64,000 nucleotides of DNA, from the NCBI GenBank assembly GCA_964402355.1, contig CAYOCB010000019.1, positions 9,684 through 73,683 of the forward strand, read 5' to 3'. Positions 2,556 to 40,526 of this stretch are shown here, piece by piece. The stretch's first letter is position 1; each line of letters starts with the position of its first letter. The notes beneath the pieces are model-generated. The model saw only the letters and a list, made by a program, of their open reading frames with translations. It was not told the origin of the DNA and did no database searches. The DNA comes from an uncultured Lacrimispora sp. (GTDB taxonomy: Bacteria; Bacillota; Clostridia; Lachnospirales; Lachnospiraceae). A program made the translations under genes and the position numbers.

Positions 2556-2564
2556 AATGCTCTC

Positions 2565-9015: not shown

Positions 9016-10446
9016 TTATTTATTTGTGATTTCCTTTGTACGGTTCTCAATAAACTTTACTATTTTCTCATTAATTGACGGATCCAGTTCCGGTGCACTG
9101 TACTCTGCAAGAATTGTTTCCCACTTTTTTTCCGCTCTTTGAACAGAATCCATGGAGTTATCAACCCAGACGCCATAAGCACGGCGGTCGCACAGATTCG
9201 TCAGCCTTTGTTCTTTTCTGAAGTTATACAAAGTATGGTCTTCCAGCAGAAAATGTCCGCCCGGGCCGATTTTCTTTATCAGGTCAAAAGCAAACGTTTC
9301 TTCCGAGAATCGAATCCCTTCCAGATACCGTAATACCATTCCGGCAATTTCGTCATCCAGCATAAACTTTTCATAGGACATGGCATTATAAAACTCCAGG
9401 ATACCTGCTGCATGAAGTACAAAATGAATACCAGTAATTCCCGCTGACAACAAGGTCATCATACTTTCAAATCCAGCCTGATTATCCGCAAGCTTGGAAT
9501 CCGTAAGTGCACCGCCGCCCCTGCATGGAACATTGTAATAACGTGCCATTTGTGCACTCGCTGCGGTTAACAGTGCACATTCCGGATTCCCTATTGACAG
9601 CATCGCTTCTGACATATCCGCAATTGCAGATGTTGAACCATATACAACCGGGGTACCGGGATTTACACATTGTGTAAGGGCAATCCCCGCCAGAACCTCC
9701 GCATTTTGTAATGCAAGCGTCCCTGCCAAAGTAACTGGTCCGGTTGTTCCCGCCATAACAAGGGAGGCTATGACGACTGGTTGTCCTGCCGCCGCATAGA
9801 CCATTAATGCACCCAACATCCGGTCATCGTATTTTAAGGGTGTAATGGAGTTAATAAGACTGATTATGACTGGTTTTTCTTTAATCACATCACGTCCGCC
9901 AAAGAGAATGGAGGCAATCTCAATAACATCATTTGCTCTTTCCTCACCGCAGGAGCTTCCCATAAAGCATTTGTCCGAGTTTACGATATGGCTGTAAATC
10001 ATCTTTAAATGCCGTATATCTTCTAAAACATCATTCGGTTCAACTACATTTCCACCCGTCATATGCATGTTGGGGCTTGCGCCTGCAAGTTTGACAAAAT
10101 TATCATAATCCTGCATTGTGGTTTCCCGCCTTGTTCCATCCGCTTCCTGCACAAACGGAGCTCCGTAACCGGGCATAAAAATAATATGATCGCCTCCGCA
10201 AACCAAATTGTTTTTCGGATTGCGTGCATGAAGCGTAAAACTGGAAGGCACTTTCTTTAAGATGTCTTCTAAAAATGCTTTTGTAAAATAAACCCTGTTT
10301 CCCGCCACTTTCAGACCTGCCTTTTGAAATGCTTCCAACGCCGGTTTATAAGAGAATTCAACTCCGACTTCTTCTAATATTTTAACTGTCTGATTATGTA
10401 CACAAATGACTTCCTCTGAAGTCAGAACATTAAATTTAGGTAACAT
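9016..10446 (-). CDS. mtgB: Non-pyrrolysine MttB-family methyltransferase, MtgB-like (probable glycine betaine:corrinoid methyltransferase)
   Basis: PGYGAPF, NSITPL.YD, GTTGPVTLAG..ALQNAE, RGGGALTDSK..D.QAGFE (Leu at Pyl-equivalent site), LHAAG; downstream of BCCT gene. Substrate is inferred. Confidence 0.82.
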   Translation of the reverse strand: MLPKFNVLTSEEVICVHNQTVKILEEVGVEFSYKPALEAFQKAGLKVAGNRVYFTKAFLEDILKKVPSSFTLHARNPKNNLVCGGDHIIFMPGYGAPFVQEADGTRRETTMQDYDNFVKLAGASPNMHMTGGNVVEPNDVLEDIRHLKMIYSHIVNSDKCFMGSSCGEERANDVIEIASILFGGRDVIKEKPVIISLINSITPLKYDDRMLGALMVYAAAGQPVVIASLVMAGTTGPVTLAGTLALQNAEVLAGIALTQCVNPGTPVVYGSTSAIADMSEAMLSIGNPECALLTAASAQMARYYNVPCRGGGALTDSKLADNQAGFESMMTLLSAGITGIHFVLHAAGILEFYNAMSYEKFMLDDEIAGMVLRYLEGIRFSEETFAFDLIKKIGPGGHFLLEDHTLYNFRKEQRLTNLCDRRAYGVWVDNSMDSVQRAEKKWETILAEYSAPELDPSINEKIVKFIENRTKEITNK

Positions 10447-10557
10447 CTTAACCACCTTTTTCCTATTTAATTTATTCATTTTTATGTCCAGAGAAACACT
10501 GATTAAATCAGTGTTTCCATAAGTATCCGTTATAAAGTATTAGGAACCTGCCTTAGA

Positions 10558-12120
10558 CTAATTGTTAAGGACTGATTCAACTGCATGATTATCTTCTGCT
10601 TCCTCTGCTATTTCTGGTTCAGCCTTAGAACAAGCAGTTACGGCCAATTCATTTTTCAGTGATTTAAATAGTGTTACAATAGAGCCTAACATAATAAATG
10701 TAAACGGAAAAGCGCCAACAATGGAAATCGTCTGTAGATTTTGAAGACCATTTGTGCTTACAAGTAATAATACCAGTGCAAGCACTGCTTCCATTGTACC
10801 CCAGATTACTTTTATGTATGTTTTGGGATTTAAATCTCCCCCGGAGGTAAAGATCCCAAGTACAAAGGTTGCAGAATCAGCTGATGTAACAAAGAACGTA
10901 ATTACAAGCAAAATAGTCAGACCGGAAAGAACCAGTGTCAGCGGATAGTGGCTGAATACAACAAAGCATGCCGTTGGAGTAGATTTAATCGCTTCTGATG
11001 CAACCTCTGTTCCCAGATTGATTCCCATGCTTCCAAATACGGCAAACCAGATAAAGGATAAAAGAGACGGAGCCAGAAGCACACCTGCAATGAATTCTCT
11101 AATGGTTCTTCCTTTCGATATTCTTGCAATAAAGGAACCTACAAAAGGTGCCCAGGCAATCCACCACGCCCAATAGAAAATGGTCCAGCTGCCGTACCAG
11201 GCAGTGTTTTTAAATGCTCCGATACTGAATGTTTCCTGAATTATATTCTGGAAGTAGTTGCCGACGCCTTCTGTGAAAGCATTTAAGGATAATAAAGTTG
11301 GTCCAATAATAAATGCCAATCCTAATAATGAAAAAGCTAAGATTAAATTCATATTGGAAAGAAATTTAATACCCTTATCAAGTCCGGATACTGCAGATAA
11401 AAGGAACAGACAAGAAGTAATTAAAATGATAATTGTCTGTATGCCTTTATTAACCGGAATATGAAACAGATAATTCAGACCACTGTTAATTTGTAAGGTT
11501 CCTAAACCTAATGAAGTAGCCCCGCCTGTGATTGTTGCAAAAACGGCAAAAACATCAATTGTCTTGCCAATCCAGCCATTAACCCTTTCCTCACCAAGCA
11601 AAGGAATGAATATACTGCTGATCAGACCGTTCTTCTTTTTTCTGAACTGCATATACGCTAATGCCAACCCCATTAAGGCATAACAGGACCAGGGATGAAG
11701 TGCCCAGTGTAAAAATGTTTTATTAATTGCAAACTCTGCAGCTTCCGGTGTTCCTGCTTTAGCATTCAGCGGTGCCATAAAATGGTTTAAAGGTTCTGCA
11801 ACCCCCCAGAATATCAGGCCGATTCCCATACCGGCAGAAAATAACATGGCAAACCAGGAAACATTACTATATTCCGGTTTTGAATCATCTTGTCCAAGTT
11901 TGATTTTTCCGTATTTACTCACACTAAGCCATATGCAGAAAAAAAGGAAAGCACCCATGGATACATTGTAGAACCAGCCGAATTTACCGGTTAAAAATGC
12001 ATATGTGAAATCTGCAACCGATTGGTAGCTGCTTGGAAATGCAACACACCATATAACGATTAAAAGTATAATCGCTAAGGAAACAGCAAATACGGAGTTG
12101 ATTTTTTTTGTCTTGTTCAT
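10558..12120 (-). CDS. BCCT-family transporter (OpuD/BetP-like, probable Na+/glycine betaine)
   Basis: WFAMLFSAGMGIGL.FWGVAEP, WTIFYWAWWIAWAPFVG.FIARISKGRTIREF, TSADS; start ATG 12120 after AGGAGG. Confidence 0.93.
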   Translation of the reverse strand: MNKTKKINSVFAVSLAIILLIVIWCVAFPSSYQSVADFTYAFLTGKFGWFYNVSMGAFLFFCIWLSVSKYGKIKLGQDDSKPEYSNVSWFAMLFSAGMGIGLIFWGVAEPLNHFMAPLNAKAGTPEAAEFAINKTFLHWALHPWSCYALMGLALAYMQFRKKKNGLISSIFIPLLGEERVNGWIGKTIDVFAVFATITGGATSLGLGTLQINSGLNYLFHIPVNKGIQTIIILITSCLFLLSAVSGLDKGIKFLSNMNLILAFSLLGLAFIIGPTLLSLNAFTEGVGNYFQNIIQETFSIGAFKNTAWYGSWTIFYWAWWIAWAPFVGSFIARISKGRTIREFIAGVLLAPSLLSFIWFAVFGSMGINLGTEVASEAIKSTPTACFVVFSHYPLTLVLSGLTILLVITFFVTSADSATFVLGIFTSGGDLNPKTYIKVIWGTMEAVLALVLLLVSTNGLQNLQTISIVGAFPFTFIMLGSIVTLFKSLKNELAVTACSKAEPEIAEEAEDNHAVESVLNN

Positions 12121-12183
12121 ATATTCCTCCTTGATTTTTATATAATAACTTGATTTATTCCTTACGTAAGCAGCTAATAACAC

Positions 12184-12295
12184 AAAAAAAGAAGCCAACA
12201 TCCATCCAAAAGACGGACATACGACTTCTTCGTCATTACAAAACCTTGGTAAAATACTGACTAAAGATCTAACCTGATTTTTTGTTTGCTAAGTA
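12184..12295 (-). promoter_or_regulatory. 5' leader with intrinsic terminator (attenuator of unrecognised class)
   Basis: Minus strand AAGAAGTCGTATGTCCGTC-TTTT-GGATGGATGTTGGCTTC-T7 lies between promoter and BCCT start; competing hairpin ATGAC-GAAGAA-GTCGT overlaps its 5' arm. Confidence 0.7.
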
Positions 12296-12300: not shown

Positions 12301-12329
12301 ATAATATACAATTTAAATGTATATGTCAA
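12301..12329 (-). promoter_or_regulatory. Sigma-A promoter of BCCT-mttB operon
   Basis: TTGACA (12329-12324)-17 bp-TATTAT (12306-12301). Confidence 0.75.
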
Positions 12330-12515: not shown

Positions 12516-13475
12516 CTAATCCTCTTCCAATAAAATTTCATCGCTGAATATACTTTTCCAGGTCTCCCTGATAGATTTTGTCAGATTTTGTTCTGATAAG
12601 CCAATCACAACTATTTTCATATCTTCATCCGATAATTGCCGGGTGCTGCATCGTTCAGACTGTACGTCATCACCAACACAGTCAAATCTCATAATACAGC
12701 TTTCGGTTCTGACAAATCCTTTTAGTCTTAATGTTTCTTTCGATATCAGATATATAAACTGATTGATCATCTTACTGTCATAAGGCTTATTAAATGAGAT
12801 AATACAGCCGTATGGTCTCCCCATGTGATTACTGGAATCACCATCCTGTGATTTCCCTTCAGGCAGATACTCTTTGATAACTTTTTCTGTTATCCTGCCA
12901 AAATTGGTATCCACTATTCTGACTTCAGAATTAATTTCTGAAAGGCTCTTATGCAGTTCATGAATTGTATCCTCCGTAACTTGATCGATTTTATTTAATA
13001 TCACAAGATTACTCTTCTTTACCTGGTTCTTGACGGATAATAACACATCTTTTATATTCAGAAACCTCACGGCATCAACAATGCAGATAGAACCTTTGTA
13101 TTGATATGTTCTGGTAATATCCCTTTTTGTAAGGAACTGACGCAGTTCCCCCAGAAGATTTTCTATACTGGATGGATCTGCCATACCTGAAGCTTCAATG
13201 TATAAGATATCAACCGGCTGTCCAAGAAAAGCCACTAATGTTTTAATAAATCCAGTCTTTAAACAGGCACAGAATATGGAACCATTATTAATCTCAACAA
13301 GTCTGACATCGTTGCTTTCGATAACCTTACCATCAATGCCAATACTCCCAAACTCATTCACAAGAACCCCGACTCGTTTATTCCTGGACATTTCTAACAG
13401 ATTGCGTAAAAATGTTGTTTTTCCTGAACCCAGAAATCCGGAAATCAAATACAGCTCAATTGGTTTTTGTTCCAT
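12516..13475 (-). CDS. CobW/COG0523-family G3E GTPase (metal chaperone)
   Basis: SGFLGSGKTT, NEFG..GIDG, GSIFCAC, EASGMADP, NKID; start moved to ATG 13475. Confidence 0.9.
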   Translation of the reverse strand: MEQKPIELYLISGFLGSGKTTFLRNLLEMSRNKRVGVLVNEFGSIGIDGKVIESNDVRLVEINNGSIFCACLKTGFIKTLVAFLGQPVDILYIEASGMADPSSIENLLGELRQFLTKRDITRTYQYKGSICIVDAVRFLNIKDVLLSVKNQVKKSNLVILNKIDQVTEDTIHELHKSLSEINSEVRIVDTNFGRITEKVIKEYLPEGKSQDGDSSNHMGRPYGCIISFNKPYDSKMINQFIYLISKETLRLKGFVRTESCIMRFDCVGDDVQSERCSTRQLSDEDMKIVVIGLSEQNLTKSIRETWKSIFSDEILLEED

Positions 13476-13770
13476 TATTTTCACCATCCTCAACATATCC
13501 AAGAACATCCCCGCAGCTAAATTCTTCTTCGTCATTTATACAAATCTCAGAAATGATACCGCTTACAGGACTTAAGAGCTCAATTGTCTTTTTCTCAACC
13601 TCACCCTCACATACAACCTGATCTTTTTGAACTGTATCACCAACTTGAGCCAGCCATGTAAGCACACCGGTCTTATTCTTTAGCTTAACCGGCCGGAACT
13701 GACAAGGGCATGGATTCACCGGATCTTTTTTAGGCATTGCTGTCTCTGGAATTTTCATTGCATGCTTCAT
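13456..13770 (-). CDS. Stand-alone lipoyl/biotinyl-attachment domain protein
   Basis: W..QVGDTV.KDQVVCE.EVEK...EL.SPVSG.I..I......GDVL pattern; N-terminal CPC. Confidence 0.8.
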   Translation of the reverse strand: MKHAMKIPETAMPKKDPVNPCPCQFRPVKLKNKTGVLTWLAQVGDTVQKDQVVCEGEVEKKTIELLSPVSGIISEICINDEEEFSCGDVLGYVEDGENNGTKTN

Positions 13771-13785
13771 AAAAAGTCTCCTTTC

Positions 13786-14376
13786 TTATTCAGAAAAATA
13801 AGGACATTTTACTTTTTTACATTGCTGATTGCGGTCATGATATTTACACTTTATATTATCTTCCATTGACAGATGCAGTTCCAGCTTATCATTAATATAT
13901 GGAATAGCTTCTTCCAGAGAAAGAAATGCAGTCCGCTTACAGCATCTTGGCCCAGGTACTTTTGATAATGCCACAAGGCACTTTCCGGTAATCTCATTGG
14001 CCCACTGCCAGGTTTTTACAGACATTGGAGTGGTATCCGTAAACACGCTCATGAAAATACCAGCTCCTACTCCGGCCCCACAAGCACCATAATATCCGCA
14101 AAAACCACCCAGAATATTTTTTGAACGTTCTTCTACCTGCTTTAACATATCCATGAAATCTTCCGTTTCTGTCTCTGCCTGTACCGCTGCTGCTGTCAGC
14201 AGCGCTGCAGGTATAATAAAATGATGATAAGGATAGTGCATGGGCACTTCCGGATTATCCATCATTTCCATAAGCAGTTCCGATACATTCATTTCCGCTT
14301 TCTCAGTAAATGCCTTTTTACAGACATCTTTGAGTTCTTTATAAACGGCTTCCTCTAATTTAAATTGACTTTCCAT
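13786..14376 (-). CDS. DUF5714-like Cys/His-rich protein
   Basis: MH.P.HH..PAALL, GGFCG..GACGAGVG.G, GPRCCKR, C....N..C....CPY. Confidence 0.75.
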   Translation of the reverse strand: MESQFKLEEAVYKELKDVCKKAFTEKAEMNVSELLMEMMDNPEVPMHYPYHHFIIPAALLTAAAVQAETETEDFMDMLKQVEERSKNILGGFCGYYGACGAGVGAGIFMSVFTDTTPMSVKTWQWANEITGKCLVALSKVPGPRCCKRTAFLSLEEAIPYINDKLELHLSMEDNIKCKYHDRNQQCKKVKCPYFSE

Positions 14377-14404
14377 ATTTTCGTACCTTCCTTCATCAAA
14401 AGAA

Positions 14405-14659
14405 TCATATATTTTTCATTTTAAGGAATTTTATAATTCTGTCATAATTTTCCGGCTCATGGGGAAATGTACATTCTTTACAGTCTTTTATGGTTTTGCC
14501 TGAACTCATCTTAATAAATTTGGGAGTACCTGGGCAATCATCGTAGCAGTTCAATGGACAATAGCAGAACAAACAGTTAAAATCGCCGCCCTTTATCATA
14601 TCGTGGCATGGATAATATTTACATTCTGTATTCTTAAAATAGCGATCACTATTCTTCAT
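14405..14659 (-). CDS. Cysteine-rich small domain (zf-like) protein
   Basis: N.EC.YYPCH, FNCLFCYCPL, KDC..C.FPH. Confidence 0.85.
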   Translation of the reverse strand: MKNSDRYFKNTECKYYPCHDMIKGGDFNCLFCYCPLNCYDDCPGTPKFIKMSSGKTIKDCKECTFPHEPENYDRIIKFLKMKNI

Positions 14660-14680
14660 GGCTCTCCCCTTTTTCCTTTA

Positions 14681-16519
14681 TTATTCACAGGCATTTGCAA
14701 ACAGCATGCTATCAATATAATAGTCCTGAAAGTCATCATTTTTAGATAATTCAACATGTCGTATTTGTTTAGTCAGCAACTCCGCCTGTTCCCGGCAGTT
14801 TATGGATAACAAAGCCATGGAAGCGCCTACTCCGGCGCCATTCCCGATTGAGATTACCTTATCTGGGGATATTGACGGTAACAATCCCATTCTTATTGCG
14901 CTTTCCTTATTTATGTAACTTCCAAATGCTCCTGCGACGATCACTCTGTCTATCTGATCAACTGTAAAATCAAGATTCTTCATTAAGGTCATCATACCTC
15001 CAAGAATAGCTCCCTTTGCCAATTGTACTTCTCTGATGTCCTGCTGCAATAGTACAATGGAATCCTTTCCGGCACTCCTGAATAGAACAATTCCGGTATC
15101 TTTCCCTTTGCCAAATAACCGGTCACATATGGCTGGTGCTATTCCTTTATTCCTGGCTTCGTCCTGTGTCAGCAGATTCCCCCTCTTATTAATGAGTCCT
15201 GCTTTTATCAGTTCTCCGATTGCATCAATCAGTCCTGATCCGCATATACCGGATGGTTCTCCGTCTTCTATTACTTTTAACGAGATATCTTCATTAATCG
15301 TTATTCCTTCAATTGCTCCTTTGGCTGCCCGCATCCCATGATGAATACATGCTCCCTCAAATGCAGGTCCTGCCGCTGTTGAACATGCTTCCACCGTACC
15401 ATTTTTTGCAACCAGGATTTCTCCATTTGTTCCCACATCTATAATAATCGTATTTCCAGGAAGTCCAAATACATTCGTTGCCAGCATTACTCCCGTAATA
15501 TCCGATCCAACGTGGCCTGCTATATTAGGAAGTGTATATACATTTGCATTGGCATTCACGCCGATTCCCAGCTGACCAGCTTTCAGATGAATTCCTTCAC
15601 AGTAAACCGGGGCAAATGGTACCCTTGACATACTGACCGGATTGACTCCTAAAAATAAGTGGCTCATGGTCGTATTCCCTACAACAGTCATATCATATAT
15701 ATGATTATTCTTTATTCCGTTTCTTTCACAGAATTTCCGGATCATCTCATTAAAGCATTCCACTATTTTCTTCTGCATCTCTTTGGTGTGGCTTACTTCC
15801 TCTATGCAGTACTGGATTCTGGATATGACATCTGAACCAAAAACACTCTGGGGATTTGTTGCAGCTTCTACATCAGCCATTTTCTTTTCAATTAAATCCC
15901 ACAATATACCAACCACTGTAGTCGTTCCGATATCGAATGCCAGCCCATAACACTGGGAAGAAGTATCATCAGCTTCTATGGCAATCAAGTGATCATCACT
16001 AAGAACAACTGTCAGTTTTCCCCTCTTAGCGGTTATTGCCTTTTGAATATCAGGAAGAAGTACATGATCAAATTTCATATCAGGACAGCTGGCTGCCTCA
16101 CGGATTCTGTCAATATCGTTAATCTGTGTCTCTATAACCGCTTTCGGAACTTTTATAAATCTCTTTTGTATGGTAATATTGGGAACAAATGAATCCGGAA
16201 GCTTATTCATACGTTTCTTTCGTTGGGAACTGCCATGAATATCCGGTATCATCACAACTAAATCAGTATTCACAGTAATCTGGCAGGCAAGCCGGTATCC
16301 TTCCTCTTTTTCTTTATCTGAAAGTGCATGTTCTTCCAGACTATTCAAGTTTCCGGCATCACCTTCCAGTATTATCACTTTACACTTCCCACATAAACCT
16401 TTTCCAGCACAACTGCCATCTATAAGCACGCCTGCTTCTGCCGCGGCATGTAACAGATTCGTTCCTTCCTCTGTAACTGTATTTTTATTATTGGGCAAAT
16501 ATAAAACGGAAACTGCCAT
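14681..16519 (-). CDS. RamA/RACo-type ATP-dependent reductive activator of corrinoid proteins (ASKHA, N-terminal 2Fe-2S)
   Basis: C.G.G.CGKC...RLACQ ferredoxin; DIGTTT, G.DVISRI, D.GTNGE, AGPAFEG, GICGSG, AGAFG. Confidence 0.93.
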   Translation of the reverse strand: MAVSVLYLPNNKNTVTEEGTNLLHAAAEAGVLIDGSCAGKGLCGKCKVIILEGDAGNLNSLEEHALSDKEKEEGYRLACQITVNTDLVVMIPDIHGSSQRKKRMNKLPDSFVPNITIQKRFIKVPKAVIETQINDIDRIREAASCPDMKFDHVLLPDIQKAITAKRGKLTVVLSDDHLIAIEADDTSSQCYGLAFDIGTTTVVGILWDLIEKKMADVEAATNPQSVFGSDVISRIQYCIEEVSHTKEMQKKIVECFNEMIRKFCERNGIKNNHIYDMTVVGNTTMSHLFLGVNPVSMSRVPFAPVYCEGIHLKAGQLGIGVNANANVYTLPNIAGHVGSDITGVMLATNVFGLPGNTIIIDVGTNGEILVAKNGTVEACSTAAGPAFEGACIHHGMRAAKGAIEGITINEDISLKVIEDGEPSGICGSGLIDAIGELIKAGLINKRGNLLTQDEARNKGIAPAICDRLFGKGKDTGIVLFRSAGKDSIVLLQQDIREVQLAKGAILGGMMTLMKNLDFTVDQIDRVIVAGAFGSYINKESAIRMGLLPSISPDKVISIGNGAGVGASMALLSINCREQAELLTKQIRHVELSKNDDFQDYYIDSMLFANACE

Positions 16520-16525
16520 ACTATT

Positions 16526-18544
16526 TCACCTCTGCTCCAGATTCTCTAAGTTTAACTCTCCGGTCGCTGTTGCTGTAATTTTATATCCCATATATAAAGG
16601 GCCAAAATCCGTATCCACAAGGTCTTCTTTTTCTTCATATTCTATGTTGGTGTCTTTTGCAGCACCTCTCTGAATGGCTTCTTCCCTAGCTTTATCTGTC
16701 GCTAATTCTTTGGCCATTTTCTTCGCATCTTCAATAGTCTCAACTGTATGGCGTTCGCCGCCGCCAAATACGGTGAAGGTACCGGTATCCTGGTTCATTA
16801 CAATCTCCATGGTAATCTTCGCACACACATTTCCGACAATCGCACCAAGTGCATTGGCAACCATGGAATAATCAGATGTTACAACCTTTGTTCCTAATAA
16901 TCTGCCAACATCCTCAAGAAAGATGTGGGTTGGAGCTCCCACACCTACCAGTACTGCCGGTGTTGAAAATTTCACATTCAGAAATTCTGTTATTTTACCT
17001 GTCCTGGCATTCTCATATGCCTGATTGATTAAAAGTCCCATCTGCTCTCCGATTCCCATTTTTCTTATCTGCGGATTCGAATCTTCAATAATAATCCGGA
17101 CTATATTAAAATACAGCTTTCTCTTAACTTCGTCATAGATTTTATCGCACAGCTCCTGGGCTGTTAACCGCATCACTCTGGCCATTCTACTGATGCCATG
17201 AATGGACGCCTGTCTTTCATATTTTGTAAAATCCCCCACAAAATGCATGACATCTGTGGGTGTAACCCCACAGCGAATAATAATCGTTTCTCTGACAAGT
17301 CTCTCAATCTGGGATTTCAATACGGTTGTATTTAATACTGCACCTATCTCTTCAAGGCTTTTGGGATTCTTTAATACAACTGAGACGATTGCTCTTTCTT
17401 TATCCGTGTAGCTGGCATTCCCACTGATATCTTTCACTCCGAGATAAATTTCGTCTTTCTGATTGGTAATAAAGGAACCCTTTTCATCCGCTTTTTTCAA
17501 ATAATTCAGAAGGTCCGGATAACGCGATGCTGCCATACATAAAGGCATAACCTTCTCATCCTCCAGTGCCACATCCTTATCATTTACCGCAATAACACCA
17601 CTGTCTCCCCCAAGGCCAAAGGTATCAACAAAAAGGCCTTTTACAAATGTATTCCACTTTCCAATATGTACACCATCATTTACCCGTTTTGGCTCACCGT
17701 CTTTTACAAATGCAATATCTGTTGTTGTACCTCCAATGTCTATAATCATACAGTTCTGCTCATCTGTTAATTCAACAGCGCCCATGACACTGGCTACCGG
17801 TCCGCATAGCAGGGTCTCGATTGGACGGGTTTTCGCAAATTTTTCTGTCATAAGACTTCCGTCACTACGTACAATTACAAACGGGACTTTAATATTTAAT
17901 TCCTTCAATGCCTTCTTTACTGCAGCAGTAAATTCTTCAATAATCGATATAAGCCTTGCATTCAGCAGAGTACTGGCTCCCCGTTTCACAATATTATATT
18001 CAGTAAACAATTCATGTCCGCATACAATCGGAATGCTGTATTTTTCATGAATCATGGATGCTGCCTTTTTCTCAAGCTCTCCACCAGTTTTTTTGGCAAA
18101 CATTTCTACAATACCGACAGCATCACAATCAGCAAACCTCTGTTCTGTCTTACTCTGAAAATCATTCCAGTCCGGCGGTTCTACAATCTGCCCATTTGTC
18201 TTTGTTTTACTATCTATAAATACAAGCGTATCATCGAATGAAATACCATAACTTTCTCCTGTCTTTCTGACGGTTTCCGGTGTTATGCCAAACATAACAA
18301 GTTTGGCTCTTCCGCCTTTGTTCTCGACACAGGCATTTGTTGCAAGCGTTGTCGAAAGTGCAATGACCTCCGCCTGATTCACTAATTCCCTTGGAAGTCC
18401 GCTTAACGCTCTTTTTATTCCTCTTGCCAAATCATCTTTTGTTGTATGAGTTTTGGCATATGCAAGAACCTTTTTTTGTTCGAACTGATAAATGACCGCA
18501 TCTGTACAAGTTCCGCCTGTATCGATTCCAATTCCTATCTTCAT
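16526..18544 (-). CDS. Hydantoinase/oxoprolinase A-like ASKHA protein
   Basis: GIDTGGT.TD, STTLATNA.VE, TLLNARL, SDG, CGP.AS..GA, DIGGTTTD, GLGGDS, TPTD, VANALGA. Confidence 0.88.
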   Translation of the reverse strand: MKIGIGIDTGGTCTDAVIYQFEQKKVLAYAKTHTTKDDLARGIKRALSGLPRELVNQAEVIALSTTLATNACVENKGGRAKLVMFGITPETVRKTGESYGISFDDTLVFIDSKTKTNGQIVEPPDWNDFQSKTEQRFADCDAVGIVEMFAKKTGGELEKKAASMIHEKYSIPIVCGHELFTEYNIVKRGASTLLNARLISIIEEFTAAVKKALKELNIKVPFVIVRSDGSLMTEKFAKTRPIETLLCGPVASVMGAVELTDEQNCMIIDIGGTTTDIAFVKDGEPKRVNDGVHIGKWNTFVKGLFVDTFGLGGDSGVIAVNDKDVALEDEKVMPLCMAASRYPDLLNYLKKADEKGSFITNQKDEIYLGVKDISGNASYTDKERAIVSVVLKNPKSLEEIGAVLNTTVLKSQIERLVRETIIIRCGVTPTDVMHFVGDFTKYERQASIHGISRMARVMRLTAQELCDKIYDEVKRKLYFNIVRIIIEDSNPQIRKMGIGEQMGLLINQAYENARTGKITEFLNVKFSTPAVLVGVGAPTHIFLEDVGRLLGTKVVTSDYSMVANALGAIVGNVCAKITMEIVMNQDTGTFTVFGGGERHTVETIEDAKKMAKELATDKAREEAIQRGAAKDTNIEYEEKEDLVDTDFGPLYMGYKITATATGELNLENLEQR

Positions 18545-18667
18545 ATCTCATACACTCCTTTCCCATCTGCCGTACTGACAATCATCTGCTAAAAAGCATA
18601 ATAAGCAGGATAACTGAATCGTTTTTGATTCATTCTCCCGCCTATTACGACTTTTTATATGTATTCA

Positions 18668-20032
18668 TCACTTTTTCATCATACTTTTTACTGTATCAAT
18701 TAACGCCTGCTTACTTGGAATAATTGATACGAATTTGGGTTCTCCATTGATTACCATTGTAGGAAGATTTGGAATTTTCATTTTCTTTGTTCTCGCAATA
18801 TCTTCCTTGTTGTTATAACGATAAACAACATAATCAGCAATATCGCTAATCTCATCAAATATATCAGTTACACTATGTACCATATATGTACAGGCTGCAC
18901 ACTGGTCCGGATCAAGTGTAAATAATTCAATAAGTACCTTATCAAGATGTTCATAATCAGGGATTATAATATCATCAAGATTATCCTCTGCTGCCTCGTA
19001 ATTCTTGACCATTTCACGTACATCAGCCGTATGTAGAACTGCCTGTGAAACAGCTACTGTATTTTCAATGGGCACATCATATGGCATATCACAGCCAGGA
19101 CTCAGAATATAATTCTTATTACTGTTTACGCTGTCGATCAGATCGATGACACACTTCATATTATCCTGCTGTGTTCCGAAAAGCATGGTAGTCGTCAATG
19201 GAATATTACCACCCATAACAATATTAAACTGATCGGTTACTTCCTTAGCTTTCACGATATCCACATTCTCATCAATATGAATGGAATCCGGATTTGTATC
19301 ACACATTACCTTAATCTGACTGGTTGCATTTCCACATACGAAGAATGCAGAAAATACTCCTTTTGACCGGATGTGGTCAAAGACCTCCCTAAAAGAACTG
19401 CCAAGCTGTTCTTCAAATGTTTCAGGTGAGACTTGGCTTACAAGCGGGTCTACAACGGCTATGACATCCATTCCTGCTTCCATATAATAGTCGCACATTT
19501 TGATTGCAACCTTGGTACAGAATTCCATAATCCCTTTTACATATTCCTTGTCTAAAAACATATCTGTAAAGAGATTGCTTCCTCTTAAATGAGAAGCAAG
19601 CGTTAACGGACCACAGATCAAGCCGTATAATGCTGTATCATCCCCTATGGACTTTTTTATTCGTTCCATTGTCCTCAGTATCATTGGAATACGACCTGAC
19701 TCTCTAGTTGGTATCTTATCATCTGATGGCCAGCCGCTTCCATCTGCCATATAGGGATGCTTTCTTACGGATGGCGGATTATTCTCTGCCCACAGCAGCT
19801 TACAGCCAAGTATTTCTGCTTCTACCTGTAAATCAAACAATACCGGCATGCCATCCGGACGATACAGCTTATGGACTTCCATCAGAGATTCATATAATTT
19901 ATCCTCATCAAGCAGAATTTCTTTTGCTGTATATCCTTTTAGCTTTCCCGCATGTACACCTGCAAATGGTACCCATGGTGTTCTTTCTGTTTCTTCATGT
20001 CTTAATGATTGAAAGATTATCTCTTTTCCCAT
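18668..20032 (-). CDS. MtaA/CmuA (URO-D superfamily) methyltransferase with C-terminal thioredoxin-like domain
   Basis: DL.VEAE.LG, GP.TLA..LRG, VCGN, GNI, ILSPGCD; C-terminal IELFT....QCAAC..M...NLPT..ING. Confidence 0.85.
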   Translation of the reverse strand: MGKEIIFQSLRHEETERTPWVPFAGVHAGKLKGYTAKEILLDEDKLYESLMEVHKLYRPDGMPVLFDLQVEAEILGCKLLWAENNPPSVRKHPYMADGSGWPSDDKIPTRESGRIPMILRTMERIKKSIGDDTALYGLICGPLTLASHLRGSNLFTDMFLDKEYVKGIMEFCTKVAIKMCDYYMEAGMDVIAVVDPLVSQVSPETFEEQLGSSFREVFDHIRSKGVFSAFFVCGNATSQIKVMCDTNPDSIHIDENVDIVKAKEVTDQFNIVMGGNIPLTTTMLFGTQQDNMKCVIDLIDSVNSNKNYILSPGCDMPYDVPIENTVAVSQAVLHTADVREMVKNYEAAEDNLDDIIIPDYEHLDKVLIELFTLDPDQCAACTYMVHSVTDIFDEISDIADYVVYRYNNKEDIARTKKMKIPNLPTMVINGEPKFVSIIPSKQALIDTVKSMMKK

Positions 20033-20072
20033 TTTTATCCTCCATAATATTTGTTATTATAAATATATACAA

Positions 20073-20711
20073 TTATCCATTGCAAAGCTTTGCTGCAAGT
20101 TCCACAGCGGAAGGAGCATTTGTACTATATCCGTCAGCGCCAATCTGATCTGCGAACTTCTGGTTAACAGGAGCACCGCCGACCATTACCCGGACCTTAT
20201 CTCTTAATCCTGCTTCTTCCAAAGCTTCAATGGTATCTTTCATTGCATACATGGTTGTGGTGAGCATTGCGGACATACCAACGATTTGAGCATCTTCATT
20301 TTCCTGTACAGCATCTACGATATCTTCCGGATCAACATCCATTCCTAAGTCGATCACTTCAAATCCTGCACTCTCAAGTAAGAGCACAACTAAGTTCTTA
20401 CCAATATCGTGCATATCTCCGGCGACTGTTGCAAAAATTGCCTTACCTGCTTTTTTCTCATCACCAGCCATTAATAATGGCTTAATTTTTGCAACACCAG
20501 ACTTCATTGCTTTTGAAGCAATTAATAATTCCGGAACAAATATTTCTCCGACTCTGAATTTCTCACCTAATACATTGATTGGTGCGACTAAGCCTTCGTT
20601 TAAAATATCCAGTGCTGAATTTCCTTCCTCCAATGCTGCATCAACAGCAGGTAATACACCTGTAACATTTCCTTCTTCAACAATCTTTGCCAGTTCAGAT
20701 AATTTTGACAT
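20073..20711 (-). CDS. Methyltransferase cognate corrinoid protein (copy 1)
   Basis: B12-binding GDMHDIGKNLV, SAML, VMVGGAP; cap domain FVPELL. Confidence 0.95.
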   Translation of the reverse strand: MSKLSELAKIVEEGNVTGVLPAVDAALEEGNSALDILNEGLVAPINVLGEKFRVGEIFVPELLIASKAMKSGVAKIKPLLMAGDEKKAGKAIFATVAGDMHDIGKNLVVLLLESAGFEVIDLGMDVDPEDIVDAVQENEDAQIVGMSAMLTTTMYAMKDTIEALEEAGLRDKVRVMVGGAPVNQKFADQIGADGYSTNAPSAVELAAKLCNG

Positions 20712-20969
20712 CACAAATCCTCCTTATCATCGTTGTTTTTTGTAAAAATAAGATCCCCTCAGACATTATGCTATTAGTTTAAACTTCAATATTTATTTTG
20801 TCAAAATAAATATTATTAAAGTTTAAATAGAACGATATCAGGTTCTTGCAATGTTACAAATTCAATATTTGGAACTATTCATATGGCGTTTCAACCAATT
20901 CTCTGAAATTTATTACATTTTCTGATTTATTCAATACAGACAATATAAGTGTATAATCGAAAAACGCTG

Positions 20970-21270
20970 CTAGTTGTTCTTTTGATTTTGAAATATCTTG
21001 ATCTGAATACATTGCTCGATCATCGAAACACAGCCGTTGTCTTTCAGCGTCTGACTATTCAAAATAATATCGTAATTTCTTCATAACGCCGCCACGTAAC
21101 TTCTCATCGACTTTATTAAACAAAGCTTCTGATATACCACTTTCCATAGATGCCATCTGCAGAATTTCATCCTCATAGCATGGAATTCCCAGTTTACTCC
21201 CTAAAATATCCCCTATTCTTTTTCCTCCACTGCCATATCCCCTGGCAATCGTTACAATATAATTATCCAT
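20970..21270 (-). pseudogene. Cytidylate kinase-like protein, internally deleted
   Basis: N-terminus IVTIARGYGSGG..IG..L joined out of frame to C-terminal NYDIILNSQTL...CV..I (stop at 20972-20970). Confidence 0.8.
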
Positions 21271-21397
21271 TTTTCTCCCTTCCGCGAAAAAAATCTACAA
21301 TTAAATGATGAAGGTAAAAGAGCAAGCGAAAAACAATAAAGTAATTGTATTTTCATCTTGCCCTTATATGTTTTCAAATTATTTCCTGTCTTAATAT

Positions 21398-22867
21398 TTA
21401 TTTACTTTCTTTTTCAGCAGCTGCCTTATCAGCAGCAATTAAGATATCCTCAACAGCCTTATCCTGCACTGGTGTCAGTGGCTTTGGAACATAATTTTCA
21501 ATAATGTCAATTGTTCTTGTCTTTACACGCTGTTCAAATGTGGTTGCTCCAGCCTTCTTCCAGTTGTCATAATCAGCTCTGTCTGTTAAGTCTGGCTGCC
21601 ACATTTCTTTATTATATTCAAGGGTATGTTCCTCCATTAAGTAATGGCCTTTCGGTCCTACTCTCTTCATAACATCCATTGCAAGATGTTCTTTATCAAA
21701 CTGGACACCATCAAATACTCTTCTCATTTGGCCGATTGTTTCATTGGAAGCTACCAGTAATTCATAGGAGAAGGTAAGTCCATAGTTCATAAATCCCACA
21801 TCATGATTCAGATTGGTTCCAGAGAAACCAATGGAATAAATGTATTGAGCAGACTCGTTCATTGCCTGTGCATCAAATACCTTGCCGCCGGAACATCCGG
21901 TGAAGCCCCATGTAGGAACTTTATATAATTCACGGCCAATCTGAGCAAGTGAAATATTATTAACAATTGCTTCCGGTGAACAGTAAGTAGGCTGCATACA
22001 TTTAAGATCCATATTATACATGGAACCGCCAAATACAATTGGTGAACCTGGATGTGCAAGCTGATGTATTACAAGTCCTGCAAGGCATTCTGCATTTGCC
22101 TGAACAATTGCTCCGGCATTTGTTATAGGACCTGTAGCACCAGGCATCATACAAGGGGAATAGTTTGTAGGCAGTTGGTTCTCTGCACAATAAATCAGCT
22201 TATCAACAGCATCATAGCAATGTGTCAAAGGAGAAATTGGTTCATTATACATAATGAACAATGGTTTCTTTGCAAGTTCTTCAAGGTTTCCTCTTATGGC
22301 AACTGCCATTTTTGTAATATTAGCAATGGACTCTCTGTTTGCAGCTGTTACTACCTGGGGTTTCGTAGAGTTACGAAGCATTACGGCATATTGATGTTCA
22401 TAGGATGTTACAGGATAATCATACATTAATCCACAGCACATTAAAAAATCCATCTCTGGCAGGGCATCGATGATTTTAGCACCATCTTCCATATCCTTAT
22501 ATGTAAAAGTCCGATGCTCTCCGGTATAAACATCAAGAATCGTAGGGCAGTCAGAACCTGTTCCATAGTAAACATTTCTACCGCCTAAATCCATTGCAAG
22601 ATCTCCATCCCGATCGTATACATGGAAATGTGACGGTGCTTGTCTTGCAGCCCATTCAACCAATCCTGCCGGGAAAAATACTTTCTTGCCTTTTACGCTG
22701 CATCCGGCTTTCTTAAGCATTTCTCTTGCACCCTCATGGTCAATAATACTTCCAACTTCCTGAAGCAGTTCAAGTGTCTTTGAATGGATTTCTTCCATTT
22801 CCTGCTGGGTCAAAAATCTCAAAGGGGCTGCTGCTTTTAACACGTTATTCTTATCTGATCTATCCAT
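21398..22867 (-). CDS. Non-pyrrolysine MttB-family methyltransferase (Cys at Pyl-equivalent site)
   Basis: YYGTGSD, EPISPL, GATGPIT.AG...ANAE, TWGFTGCSGGK.FDAQA, HDVG, VGP.GHYL. Confidence 0.92.
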   Translation of the reverse strand: MDRSDKNNVLKAAAPLRFLTQQEMEEIHSKTLELLQEVGSIIDHEGAREMLKKAGCSVKGKKVFFPAGLVEWAARQAPSHFHVYDRDGDLAMDLGGRNVYYGTGSDCPTILDVYTGEHRTFTYKDMEDGAKIIDALPEMDFLMCCGLMYDYPVTSYEHQYAVMLRNSTKPQVVTAANRESIANITKMAVAIRGNLEELAKKPLFIMYNEPISPLTHCYDAVDKLIYCAENQLPTNYSPCMMPGATGPITNAGAIVQANAECLAGLVIHQLAHPGSPIVFGGSMYNMDLKCMQPTYCSPEAIVNNISLAQIGRELYKVPTWGFTGCSGGKVFDAQAMNESAQYIYSIGFSGTNLNHDVGFMNYGLTFSYELLVASNETIGQMRRVFDGVQFDKEHLAMDVMKRVGPKGHYLMEEHTLEYNKEMWQPDLTDRADYDNWKKAGATTFEQRVKTRTIDIIENYVPKPLTPVQDKAVEDILIAADKAAAEKESK

Positions 22868-22950: not shown

Positions 22951-23589
22951 TTATTCGGTACAAAGTTTTGTTGCAAGTTCTACAGCGGAAGGAGCATTTG
23001 TACTGTATCCGTCAGCGCCGATCTGATCTGCGAACTTCTGATTAACAGGAGCTCCGCCAACCATTACCCTAACCTTATCTCTTAATCCGGCTTCTTCCAA
23101 TGCTTCAATGGTATCTTTCATTGCATACATGGTGGTCGTGAGCATAGCGGACATACCAACAATTTGAGCATCTTCATTTTCCTGTACAGCATCTACGATG
23201 TCTTCCGGATCAACATCCATTCCTAAATCAATTACTTCAAATCCTGCACTCTCAAGTAACAGCACAACTAAGTTCTTACCGATATCATGCATATCGCCTG
23301 CGACTGTTGCAAAAATTGCCTTGCCTGCTTTTTTCTCATCACCAGCCATTAATAATGGCTTAATCTTTGCAACACCAGACTTCATTGCCTTTGAAGCAAT
23401 TAATAATTCCGGAACAAATATTTCTCCGACTCTGAATTTCTCACCTAATACGTTAATTGGTGCGACTAAGCCTTCGTTTAAAATATCCAGCGCTGAAATT
23501 CCTTCCTCCAATGCTGCTTCAACAGCAGGTAATACGCCTGCAACATTTCCTTCTTCAACAATTTTTGCTAATTCAGATAATTTTGACAT
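22951..23589 (-). CDS. Methyltransferase cognate corrinoid protein (copy 2)
   Basis: DMHDIG motif; differs from copy 1 at 6 of 212 residues. Confidence 0.95.
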   Translation of the reverse strand: MSKLSELAKIVEEGNVAGVLPAVEAALEEGISALDILNEGLVAPINVLGEKFRVGEIFVPELLIASKAMKSGVAKIKPLLMAGDEKKAGKAIFATVAGDMHDIGKNLVVLLLESAGFEVIDLGMDVDPEDIVDAVQENEDAQIVGMSAMLTTTMYAMKDTIEALEEAGLRDKVRVMVGGAPVNQKFADQIGADGYSTNAPSAVELATKLCTE

Positions 23590-25219: not shown

Positions 25220-26686
25220 ATGAAAAAACACTCGTCATCACAATTCATGGGTAAAAACGGATTGACCTTTTTTACCAAACAGGATATGGAAAAGATTCAT
25301 AGTGCTACCCTGCAGCTTCTGGAGGAAGTTGGATGTGAGGTTCAATATGCACCTGCACTTGATAAATTAAAGGAAGCCGGTGCTTTTGTTCAAAAGAAAC
25401 GAGTTAAATTTCCACCGACACTTGTTGAATGGGCAATCAGACAGGCACCTTCAAGAATCAATCTCTACGACAGAGATGGTAATTTTGCAATGGATTGCAG
25501 CGGCAGGAACGCATATTACGGCGTTGGCTCTGCATGTCCTAACATCCTTGACAGCTATACGGGAGAACACAGACTCTGTAATGAAGAAGACAACAAAAAC
25601 TGCGTTAAGGTTGCCGACGCAATGCCATATATTGATTATATGATGTCAATGGCTCAGGTTTATAACCATCCCAAAACTTCTTATGAGCATGAATATTCTG
25701 CCATGATTCGTTATAGTTCAAAACCACAGGTTGTTATTACCGCTGATCTGGAATCTACGAAAAATGTTGTGGAAATGGCTTCGATCGCAAGAGGCGGATT
25801 AGATAAGCTTCAGGAAAAACCGTTATTTATTCTGTATTGTGAGCCAACGTCTCCAATGGTGTGTACGAAGGAATCCATGGAAAAAGTAATGTACTCTGCC
25901 GAAACAGGTATTCCTGTTTTGTACGCACCAATCCCTATGAATGGTGCAACCGGACCAATGCCGCTTGCTTCCTGCATCATACAGGCCAATGCAGAATGTC
26001 TGGCAGGATTAATCGTCGCTCAGGTTACCAAACCTGGTGCGCCTTTCTTATATGGTGCTATCATAACGAATATGGATATGAGAAGTCTGCAGCCTACATA
26101 TGCTTCCCCGGAAACGATGATTGAATCTCTCGCAATGTCAGAAATCGGACGTGAATTATACCACTTGCCAACATGGGGTACCGCTGGCTGTACAAGTTCT
26201 AAGCTTGCTGACGAACAGGCCGTTCTAGAAGGATCACAATACATAACGCTTGCAGGTCTTTCTGGCGCTAATGTTATTCATGATGTTGGATACACTACAT
26301 TTGGACTCACATTTTCTCTTGACCTTGTTATTATGATGAATGATGTAATCGGACGTGTACGTCGTTTCTTCGACAGCGTAAAGATGGATGACGAGCATAT
26401 CAGTATGAACGAAGATCTTCTCGCTGTTGGTCCCAAAGGACATTATCTTGGTCAAAACTCCACTCTTGTACTGAACAAAGGATATTGGGAATCAAAGCTT
26501 GAAGACAGAAATGAATTCGACAGATGGTCTGCACTTGGATCAAAATCAATGGGACAACGTGCAAATGAGATTGTAAGGGATATCATTGAAAATCAACCGC
26601 TTAACATGCTTCCTCCTGAAATTGATGCACAGATAGTTGAATTAATAGACCGCATTGATAAAAAGGAAACTGCTTCCATGGAGTAA
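25220..26686 (+). CDS. Non-pyrrolysine MttB-family methyltransferase (Cys at Pyl-equivalent site)
   Basis: YYGVGS, EPTSP, GATGP...A....ANAE, TWGTAGCTSSK.ADEQA, HDVG; clear paralog of 21398-22867. Confidence 0.92.
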   Translation: MKKHSSSQFMGKNGLTFFTKQDMEKIHSATLQLLEEVGCEVQYAPALDKLKEAGAFVQKKRVKFPPTLVEWAIRQAPSRINLYDRDGNFAMDCSGRNAYYGVGSACPNILDSYTGEHRLCNEEDNKNCVKVADAMPYIDYMMSMAQVYNHPKTSYEHEYSAMIRYSSKPQVVITADLESTKNVVEMASIARGGLDKLQEKPLFILYCEPTSPMVCTKESMEKVMYSAETGIPVLYAPIPMNGATGPMPLASCIIQANAECLAGLIVAQVTKPGAPFLYGAIITNMDMRSLQPTYASPETMIESLAMSEIGRELYHLPTWGTAGCTSSKLADEQAVLEGSQYITLAGLSGANVIHDVGYTTFGLTFSLDLVIMMNDVIGRVRRFFDSVKMDDEHISMNEDLLAVGPKGHYLGQNSTLVLNKGYWESKLEDRNEFDRWSALGSKSMGQRANEIVRDIIENQPLNMLPPEIDAQIVELIDRIDKKETASME

Positions 26687-34910: not shown

Positions 34911-36317
34911 TTATCTCCTTTTGGGCATAATATGTATTGCTTCCCCATGACTGTCTTCCACTGCTTCTGCAATTGATTCACTAAAAGTCGGATGTGCTTT
35001 CATTGCTTTTAACATCTGCTTTGAAGTTAAGCCATTTGCAATGGAAAGCGCCATCTCACCTACCAGATCAGTCGCTCTCCCGCACATCATATGAGCACCA
35101 AGAATTTTATCAGTCTCTTTATCAAAAATCAACTTGACAAATCCCCTGTCCTGCTTTTCTATAATGGATTTGGAATTAGCGGTGGTAATAAATTTGCCGA
35201 CACGAGTTGCTATCTGATGATTCTTTGCATACTCTTCTGTTATACCCACACATGCAATCTCCGGATCCGTATATACGCAGGAGGGGACCACACTTAAATC
35301 CTGTTCCGGCGTCAAACCTGACATCTTTTCCACTGCGTAGATTCCCTGTGCACTGGCAACATGTGCCAGTTGAATTCCCTTAATTGCATCTCCAATCGCA
35401 AAAATTCCAGGTATTGATGTTTCGAATGATTCGTTTACCAGAATTTTTCCGTTTTCCATATCCACAGATAACCCTTCTGCGAATAAATCATCTGTATTAG
35501 ACCTTCTGCCGATTGCAGCCATGACATATGCTGCCGTAACCGTATGCATTTCTTCCTTCAACTGGAACACACAATCAAGGCCTTCTTCTGACTGTACAAT
35601 TTTCTCTACCTTGGCATCTGTATAAATCTCAATGCCGCGCTTTTTCATAATCATCTTCAGATTTTGTGAAATATCCTTATCCATCGTTGGCAAGATCCGT
35701 GACATTGCTTCGACAATGGTTACCTTACAGCCGACTGCATTCAGAACAAGAGCAAACTCACAGCTGATAACACCGCCGCCTATAATAATCATACTTCCAT
35801 CACAATAAGAATAATCTGAAAGAAGATCATCACTGGTAATCACACCATTAAGACCGACTCCGGGAATAGAAGGAATCAACGGCTTGGAACCTGTAGCTAT
35901 CATAATTTTACCAGTCTCAAGTGTTATCATTTCCTGCTCACTTTCAACAATTACACGATGATTACTCTCTATTTTAGCCCGCCCCCGTACCAGTGTTACT
36001 TTATTTCCACTCAGTAATTGTTCTACACCGCCTCTGAGCTGTTCTACAACCTCATTCTTATACTGATACATTTGAGGCAGATTGATTGTTACCTTATTTG
36101 CTGATATGCCCATATGTTCTGCCATCTCAAACATTCTGAATGTCTGCAGTGCATGAATCAATGTCTTTGTCGGAACACAACCTCTGTTAAGACATGTACC
36201 TCCAACATCCTGACTTTCTACAATTGCTACTTTCATCCCAAGTTTCGCTGCTTTAATTGCCGAAACATATCCTCCAGGACCTGAGCCAATCATTACAAGA
36301 TCATATTTCTCACTCAT
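34911..36317 (-). CDS. lpdA: Dihydrolipoyl dehydrogenase (L protein)
   Basis: GSGPGGY, GGTCLNRGCVP, AHPT.SE. Confidence 0.96.
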   Translation of the reverse strand: MSEKYDLVMIGSGPGGYVSAIKAAKLGMKVAIVESQDVGGTCLNRGCVPTKTLIHALQTFRMFEMAEHMGISANKVTINLPQMYQYKNEVVEQLRGGVEQLLSGNKVTLVRGRAKIESNHRVIVESEQEMITLETGKIMIATGSKPLIPSIPGVGLNGVITSDDLLSDYSYCDGSMIIIGGGVISCEFALVLNAVGCKVTIVEAMSRILPTMDKDISQNLKMIMKKRGIEIYTDAKVEKIVQSEEGLDCVFQLKEEMHTVTAAYVMAAIGRRSNTDDLFAEGLSVDMENGKILVNESFETSIPGIFAIGDAIKGIQLAHVASAQGIYAVEKMSGLTPEQDLSVVPSCVYTDPEIACVGITEEYAKNHQIATRVGKFITTANSKSIIEKQDRGFVKLIFDKETDKILGAHMMCGRATDLVGEMALSIANGLTSKQMLKAMKAHPTFSESIAEAVEDSHGEAIHIMPKRR

Positions 36318-36329
36318 AATAGTTTCTCC

Positions 36330-37325: not shown

Positions 37326-37336
37326 ATACTCTCCTA

Positions 37337-40089: not shown

Positions 40090-40125
40090 GCAATCCTCCA
40101 TTCTGCATTTCATGCAAACTGCTTA

Positions 40126-40512
40126 CTACTCAGCACTCTCTTCTTCAACAAATTTCTCATAAGCGTCTGCTTCCATTAATTCCTCTGAAGTTGTGATATC
40201 TGATATTTCAATAAGCCATGCATCATATGGCGCATCGTTAATACGCTGCGGTTCATCAAGGAGTTCTTCATTTATTTTGCTGATGACACCTGACAATGGG
40301 GAATATACGTCAGAAACAGCTTTTACTGATTCAACATCAGAAACAACCTCTTCTTTTTCGATTGCATCTCCTTCTTCCGGAAGATTCACATATACCAAAT
40401 CTCCCAATTGACTTTGTGCATAATCTGTTAAGCCAACGAGTGCTGTCGTATCGTCAATATATTTTACCCACTCATGTGATTTTGTATATTTTAATTCCTT
40501 TGGATAATTCAT
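40126..40512 (-). CDS. gcvH: Glycine cleavage H protein
   Basis: [21 protein letters not shown] lipoyl-lysine motif. Confidence 0.97.
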
Positions 40513-40526
40513 GTTTTTGCTCCTTT

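Follow-up and report, generated by a model that had tools for sequence, protein, structure and literature searches.

The stretch of DNA analysed here (the window; 64,000 nucleotides of contig CAYOCB010000019.1, assembled from an uncultured Lacrimispora sp.) raises the question of where methyl groups may go in a bacterium that encodes non-pyrrolysine (non-Pyl) MttB methyltransferases and corrinoid proteins and no stand-alone methyltransferase acting on tetrahydrofolate (THF). To our knowledge, the characterised bacterial MttB systems all end on folate. Eight genes of the window, all on the minus strand and running from 20714 down to 12516 with intergenic gaps of 6-123 bp, suggest a different destination: One of them encodes an MtaA/URO-D-fold barrel fused to a thioredoxin-fold domain. 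We propose, with a probability of about 0.4 and on the basis of sequence, that this fusion enzyme provides a sulfur-directed methyl exit, in which cysteine (Cys) or selenocysteine (Sec) at position 314 would be the reactive centre and a lipoyl and thioredoxin relay would supply electrons. All eight domain families were recovered in the order given by a first-pass annotation of the same DNA:

20073..20714, minus strand: corrinoid (methyl-carrier) protein with the B12-binding domains PF02310 and PF02607, 98% identical to its paralog at 22951-23589
18668..20032, minus strand: MtaA/URO-D-fold enzyme with C-terminal thioredoxin-fold domain, assigned from domains, fold model and alignments
16526..18544, minus strand: hydantoinase-A-like (HydA-like) protein, domain match
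14681..16519, minus strand: RACo/RamA-type reductive activator of corrinoid proteins, Fer2 and RACo domains
14405..14659, minus strand: small Cys-rich zf-like protein, PF04071
13786..14376, minus strand: DUF5714 Cys/His-rich protein, domain match
13456..13770, minus strand: stand-alone lipoyl-type domain of 104 aa with an N-terminal CxC extension, PF00364 (47.5 bits)
12516..13475, minus strand: CobW/COG0523 G3E GTPase, likely start at 13475, overlapping the lipoyl gene by 20 nt

No Stand-Alone Folate Methyltransferase in Window or Genome

The window had been claimed to lack a pterin-type THF methyltransferase (MT2); profile searches confirm this and found no MtrH-type MT2 in the window either. 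In the whole genome (G000; 5.28 Mb, 99.99% complete, 4.07% contamination), PF00809 (Pterin_bind) matched FolP and MetH (815 aa) only, and so did a hidden Markov model built locally from 17 stand-alone MT2 sequences. The genome-wide Pterin_bind search, which the first-pass annotation had proposed, answers the question for the MtqA/AcsE type, but it is blind to MtrH-type MT2s (MtgA-like), which needed a separate search: PF02007 (MtrH) gave zero matches in the genome. Acetyl-CoA synthase (ACS) and GrdA were not found there either; SelD is encoded. MttBs with 64-65% identity to that encoded at 9016-10479 come after MtrH-BCCT in three other genomes, and MtrH-type MT2s precede BCCT-MttB in loci L179-L181; the fusion-enzyme operon occupies the position of the MtrH-type MT2 in related BCCT-MttB clusters. 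The idea of a methyl exit without THF is thus upheld in so far as the genome encodes no stand-alone THF MT2, but MetH is still there as a conventional exit.

Elsewhere in this genome (C3:178978-185477), separate URO-D-fold genes that keep the HIC motif lie together with genes for two corrinoid proteins and RACo. This cluster resembles the type 1 mlp clusters discussed below and could be another methyl exit.

A Remodelled MtaA-Type Site Fused to a Thioredoxin Domain

The AF2 model of the URO-D/MtaA barrel has a pLDDT of 92.8 and finds 4ay8 and 4ay7 as its top Foldseek matches; the closest solved fold is that of MtaA (4ay8; E 7e-23, TM-score 0.88 on the target, 24% identity). In the alignment, for which we presume the zinc-ligand numbering of MtaA, the H-I-C motif becomes F-V-C (Phe231-Val-Cys233), followed by Asp254 as acidic ligand and Cys314 as last Cys. 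The description of the enzyme as MtaA-like consequently holds for the fold, but the zinc-ligand His of the thiol-activating His-Cys-Cys site is replaced, and MtaA chemistry cannot be assumed. The thioredoxin CxxC (C378-AA-C381) is invariant in 121/121 and 98/98.

Like MtaA/MtbA (Methanosarcina mazei MtaA, PDB 4ay7/4ay8), the enzyme has the same barrel, in which two Cys and the acidic Zn-site residue align, and has a corrinoid protein, an activase and a COG0523 GTPase encoded alongside. Unlike MtaA/MtbA, it carries Phe for His, a fused CxxC thioredoxin and a lipoyl module, resides in a bacterial host, belongs to a family in which the last Cys is often replaced by predicted Sec, and scores under all NCBIfam MtaA-type cut-offs (NF040654, 135 against 400; NF041608, 115 against 600; TIGR01463, 147 against 235). 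The family is large and conserved: The 120 best of 4840 matches are at least 64% identical over the full length, and at E <= 1e-60 the enzyme is found in 18 of 400 other genomes from the same phylum and in 9 of 301 from a second phylum.

Predicted Cysteine-Selenocysteine Exchange at Position 314

The window's own copy has a Cys codon at position 314 in an open frame, and no SelA is found in its genome. In 16 distinct loci from two phyla this position is an in-frame TGA, which occurs in at least four places on a FastTree tree of 104 sequences. SelA is present in 16/16 genomes with the TGA form compared to 19/42 with the Cys form, and a SECIS-like hairpin lies 19-22 nt downstream in 15/16 TGA genes compared to 2/88 Cys-codon genes, kin among these genes not being independent. 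Because all 16 relatives with TGA at 314 come with SelA and 15 of them with the hairpin, we predict them to be selenoproteins; of the Sec machinery, SelA was the component searched for. The SECIS region of genome G644 folds no better than shuffled sequences (z ~0), and the support from SECIS therefore comes from the contrast in hairpin pattern across genes and not from the folding energy in G644. In four TGA-form loci there is also a separate thioredoxin-like gene, whose CxxC motif has TGA as its first codon.

The enzyme family is not contained in the 119-family selenoprotein table of a 2026 review (PMC13188914, section 7) and not mentioned in the main text of BSepDB, and NCBIfam has no selenoprotein model for the barrel. 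Literature searches, whose coverage leaves out Haft and Tolstoy 2025, found no paper on the Sec form. The family appears to be a selenoprotein family missing from the 2026 table, with selenium at the position of an MtaA zinc ligand. In one locus (L167:1577-18213), a single operon combines a Sec-form enzyme and split thioredoxins (one UxxC) with LplA, Lpd, GcvH-like carriers, radical-SAM genes, two more URO-D genes and an MtrH-type MT2.

Genomic Neighbours of the Enzyme

We compared 53 loci seeded by the enzyme and 18 seeded by the lipoyl protein. Among the former, CobW is present in 48, a corrinoid protein in 31, RACo in 24, a PocR-AraC regulator in 22, DUF2284 in 12, MttB in 9, DUF5714 in 7, Lpd-like and LplA genes in 4 each and HydA in 3; the zf-like Cys-rich protein occurs in none of these 53 and in none of the 71 related loci examined. 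These counts define a core of enzyme and CobW, usually joined by a corrinoid gene, and the full eight-gene set, which had been put forward as a unit to be looked for across Clostridia, is not conserved across the 53 loci. Neither a pterin- nor an MtrH-type MT2 lies within any of the 71. The first-step partners vary: Besides non-Pyl MttB, they include Pyl MttB together with MtbB (L008, L013) and an MtmB-like protein (L007, L080, L090, L168, L169, L171, L177), which fits action on a shared methyl-corrinoid and not on one substrate.

The tight association with CobW, the closest partner of the enzyme, is what would be expected of a maintenance module. In such a module, the GTPase, DUF5714, the CxC-lipoyl protein and the thioredoxin domain would fill or mend a metal or thiol site, or free corrinoid proteins of methyl groups that have become stuck, and there would be no bulk methyl flux. 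The clustering of COG0523 with corrinoid methyltransferases is a general one (PMC2770081), the known fusions of the lipoyl domain are with CobW and with DUF5714 and not with the enzyme, and the module would be useful with or without an MT2. However, the repeated Cys/Sec exchange at position 314 points to a catalytic barrel site, and the methyl exit of MT2-less genomes would be left unexplained. We consider this explanation unlikely.

In L006, L007, L010 and L090, genes for an ammonium transporter (Amt), PII and a MocR-type regulator stand beside the module, with the MtmB-like gene in L007 and L090; this suggests nitrogen scavenging from methylamines. An NMT1/SsuA-like ABC binding protein, encoded beside the module in L009, L010, L020, L074 and L167, could import a sulfonate or thiol acceptor.

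The Lipoyl Protein and Its Partners

The lipoyl protein had been named as a partner in the first-pass annotation, and its linkage to the enzyme recurs across genomes: The 18 lipoyl-seeded loci contain DUF5714 in 16, the enzyme in 13, CobW in 13, LplA in 10 and Lpd in 2 cases, and the five without the enzyme all lie on contigs of at most 3.2 kb. The acceptor Lys60 is kept in 53/55 sequences, Cys21 in 52/55 and Cys23 in 53/55; from the profile match, the acceptor Lys and the linked ligase gene we infer that the protein is lipoylated. Among the 150 profile matches listed, there are four lipoyl-CobW and four DUF5714-lipoyl fusions. In four Ruminococcus metagenome-assembled genomes (MAGs), Lpd-like and LplA genes come after the enzyme, the three together facing DUF5714, and three of the loci have lipoyl-CobW; a lipoyl acceptor of E2 or GcvH size was not seen in these four, whose remaining lipoyl-profile matches are probably biotin carriers. 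Another kind of carrier, of GcvH type, is encoded behind the enzyme in L161 and L162, and in L167 together with radical-SAM, LplA and Lpd genes. A DUF5714 search of Atlas returned DUF5714 clusters only, and a BioB-like radical SAM neighbour scored under every family cut-off. The predicted complex of enzyme and lipoyl protein scored 0.00 and was given no weight either way.

According to the first-pass annotation, the methyl group might be put on a protein thiol, namely a dihydrolipoyl carrier or a CxxC; in this version it would sit directly on dihydrolipoyl-lysine or the CxxC cysteine and be passed from there to another enzyme. In several lineages a dedicated lipoyl carrier, ligase and Lpd do lie beside the enzyme, as do the GcvH-type carriers in L161, L162 and L167. 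Most loci, however, lack a carrier, Lpd works on the dithiol/disulfide form, and we know of no release step for an S-methyl thioether. A protein acceptor is accordingly quite improbable in our view, and the lipoyl protein, which was not found at 50/53 enzyme loci, is unlikely to be an obligatory one.

Proposed Mechanism and Its Rivals

In the mechanism that we favour, the three MttBs of the window would likely take methyl groups from betaine-type substrates and charge the corrinoid proteins with them, and the fusion enzyme would likely pass them on to a sulfur acceptor at the remodelled Cys233/Cys314 site, where Cys314, the residue replaced by predicted Sec in many relatives, would act as reactive atom or metal ligand. 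The thioredoxin domain would likely be kept reduced by an NADH-Lpd-lipoyl relay via the small lipoyl protein, the lipoyl group serving as electron carrier and not as methyl acceptor; there is precedent for thiol reductases fed by NADH-lipoyl relays (PMC8945050). Assembly or upkeep of the metal site would fall to CobW and DUF5714. The most likely product would be a small methyl-thiol, e.g. methanethiol or a methionine precursor.

Several observations weigh against a sulfur-directed exit of this kind. Phe231 and Cys233 are kept in 109/110 alignments (duplicates included), which leaves the family with a His-Cys-Cys site that has no His. The lipoyl protein is found at just 3/53 enzyme-seeded loci and, at family strength, in 0/400 order-mates; five of the lipoyl loci (L081-83, L088, L089) are close kin, and many loci belong to MAGs that may be incomplete. 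No sulfur-donor gene was identified in the cluster, and the role of the relay is a guess, since plain thiol methylation takes no net reductant. Moreover, 29/49 host genomes are without MttB, the enzyme shares a cluster with an MT2 in L113 (side by side) and L114, and L115 is a near-copy of the window cluster in a genome with many MT2s. Finally, the genome itself encodes MetH and MetF, adjacent to each other, as well as Fhs, and MetH could serve as methyl exit.

Strict replacement of the THF MT2 by the enzyme was tried as an explanation and rejected. In enzyme-seeded genomes the pattern is strong: A stand-alone MT2 is present in 7/48 (8 when one ambiguous 421-aa protein is counted) and missing from 14/19 of those with MttB, among other things from the isolate G027, which has 15 MttB matches and no ACS. 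In an unbiased sample of 400 Clostridia, 18 of which have MttB and 10 of these also the enzyme, it failed, a stand-alone MT2 being present in 8/10 MttB genomes with the enzyme (one ambiguous) compared to 6/8 without, which again speaks against our reading. All four MttB genomes of this sample that lack an MT2 encode a URO-D-fold protein near a corrinoid gene, three of them inside the MttB cluster, and two of the four use a plain HxC-type URO-D enzyme. Such an enzyme is found in L122:4039-13615 and L123:5040-14518, together with a corrinoid protein, DUF2284, RACo, MttB and BCCT; these clusters, from genomes without a stand-alone THF MT2, are a second candidate folate-free exit.

The coexistence of the enzyme with THF MT2s, even adjacently, and the lack of MttB in most host genomes would be accommodated if MetH were the exit, its pterin or homocysteine domain taking the methyl group from free corrinoid proteins, and the fusion enzyme worked at the first step, on a donor with an S-, Se- or N-methyl group. 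The MetH-MetF adjacency, the presence of Fhs and a MetH-reactivation-like gene at 44026-44751 agree with this, and first-step enzymes that have the URO-D fold and changed Zn ligands have been described (PMC10418091). The 44026-44751 protein bears a weak likeness (E 3e-5) to the genome's MetH-reactivation-type protein and has no Pfam match; L008 and L011 have similar genes close to the enzyme. A first-step role is, however, at odds with the several unrelated first-step families that the enzyme accompanies, and MetH as exit, with a flux that is normally of biosynthetic size, fits poorly with hosts that have 6-15 MttB genes but lack any other MT2. On balance, we regard this alternative as rather unlikely.

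A reductant would be needed if the enzyme served the oxidative methylation of metals or metalloids (As, Se, Te) with methylamine-derived methyl groups, thioredoxin and lipoyl reducing the product between rounds. Domain links connect DUF2284 and DUF5714 with families of arsenite methyltransferases and of metal-binding selenoproteins, but arsenic-resistance or efflux genes are not among the recurrent annotated neighbours, which are amine transporters and, in some loci, the Amt and PII nitrogen genes; we hold this for very improbable.

The sulfur-directed exit may also be put in a more far-reaching form, which we consider doubtful: In non-acetogenic anaerobes, betaine and methylamines would be demethylated catabolically and free of folate, the Cys/Sec enzyme would move the methyl group to enzyme-bound sulfur, and an NADH-Lpd-lipoyl-thioredoxin chain would free methanethiol reductively, so that methyl disposal would take up electrons and be coupled to glycine cleavage as their sink. 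In a remote and extremely improbable extension, the methyl group would leave reductively as methane with no methyl-CoM reductase involved.

Comparison with Known Systems

Bacterial MtaA-like clusters without a THF methylase have been described by Kountz and Balskus (PMC10418091), who proposed methyl transfer to sulfide or a thiol and based the inference of S/Se-methyl transfer on the His-Cys-Cys site; to call such an exit route undescribed, as had been done for the window, was overstated. Their type 1 mlp clusters resemble the window in the MtaA-like enzyme, the co-oriented corrinoid protein and Ram, and the lack of a THF methylase within 20 kb. They require, however, at least two Mlps (Mlp2, Mlp3), nearly all with His-Cys-Cys, whereas the window has only one URO-D gene, a His-less Mlp with MttB partners. 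The main text of that paper does not mention CobW or lipoyl, and thioredoxin appears solely in a reference title.

The betaine MtgB/MtgC/MtgA clusters of Desulfitobacterium, Acetobacterium woodii and strain DCMF (PMC9768040) share with the window non-Pyl MttBs, two corrinoid proteins, a HydA-like gene (section 14 there) and BCCT. The DCMF cluster has the order CoP-MtgB-CoP-MtgB-HydA-MtgA-MtgB-BCCT, MT2 included (PMC9768040). The layout of the window is much like it, but the THF methyltransferase is missing from cluster and genome, and the fusion-enzyme operon stands in its place. In the NADH-Lpd-lipoyl relays to AhpD, Ohr and OsmC (PMC8945050), a lipoylated protein and Lpd feed electrons to a CxxC protein, as is proposed here. 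In contrast to these, the carrier of the window stands alone as a domain of 104 aa that has a CxC of its own, and its predicted client is a methyltransferase and not a peroxidase. Folate-free MtaA-like clusters (PMC10418091) and the clustering of COG0523 with corrinoid methyltransferases (PMC2770081) are therefore already known; literature searches, which did not cover supplements, turned up no account of the His-less thioredoxin fusion, its Cys/Sec exchange or the dedicated lipoyl module.

Surroundings of the Operon

The window contains further genes of methyl and glycine metabolism:

9016..10479, minus strand: non-pyrrolysine MttB, uninterrupted, the one compared above with MttBs behind MtrH-type MT2 and BCCT
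10558..12201, minus strand: BCCT transporter, NF047988 score of 651.7 against 650 bits, barely over the glycine-betaine uptake cut-off
21398..22867, minus strand: non-pyrrolysine MttB, domain match, uninterrupted
22951..23589, minus strand: second corrinoid protein, domain match
25220..26686, plus strand: non-pyrrolysine MttB, domain match, uninterrupted
34911..41627, minus strand: glycine-cleavage operon, including Lpd (34911-36317) and the lipoate ligase LplA (36330-37340)
41731-41895: tandem glycine riboswitch heading the glycine-cleavage operon

A genome search placed all three MttB genes inside the window and none elsewhere. From the joint presence of non-Pyl MttB, corrinoid protein and a BCCT transporter over the betaine cut-off, a betaine-type compound is the predicted substrate. 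The glycine-cleavage operon lies ~14 kb upstream of the eight-gene run and is followed by glyA and a cobalamin-synthesis cluster; its Lpd and LplA are the likely local source of lipoylation and reduction for the lipoyl protein. The layout is consistent with betaine being demethylated stepwise to glycine and the glycine then being cleaved.

The spacer 20714-21398 holds a short fragment, probably a remnant, which we take to resemble the start of a nucleotide-kinase-like gene. Directly 5' of each corrinoid gene and of BCCT lie promoter-like TTGACA-17 sites (23671-23699, 20776-20804 and 12301-12329), which suggest three transcription units, although the promoter scan is at chance level overall (64 vs 62.8), as is the terminator scan (13 vs 11.4). 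Two related HTH regulators are encoded at 24087-24809 and 28344-29078, with homologs near the Sec-form loci L166 and L167.

The composition of the contig is unusual (GC content of 38% vs ~42% in the genome), which raises the question of mis-binning. Since its read depth (17.8 vs 16.8, in the likely source run) equals that of the MetH locus and its left end matches contig C17, we rejected mis-binning, and the low-GC contig reads as a genomic island; its CbiD, only 46% identical to that of the same-genus genome G378, sits less well with this. At 8-5361 lies an NAD salvage cluster, recognised by inspection (NadE-, NadD-, PncB-, PncA- and NrtR-like); part of it repeats genes present elsewhere in the genome, which agrees with an island.

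Implications

The window locus offers a compact, all-cysteine and easily expressed set of enzyme, corrinoid protein, activase, lipoyl carrier, ligase and Lpd. The destination of the methyl groups matters because 14 of the 19 MttB-bearing enzyme hosts and 4 of the 18 Clostridia MttB genomes in the unbiased sample have no stand-alone folate MT2, and it bears on betaine and methylamine turnover as well as on volatile-sulfur output in sediments, digesters and guts.

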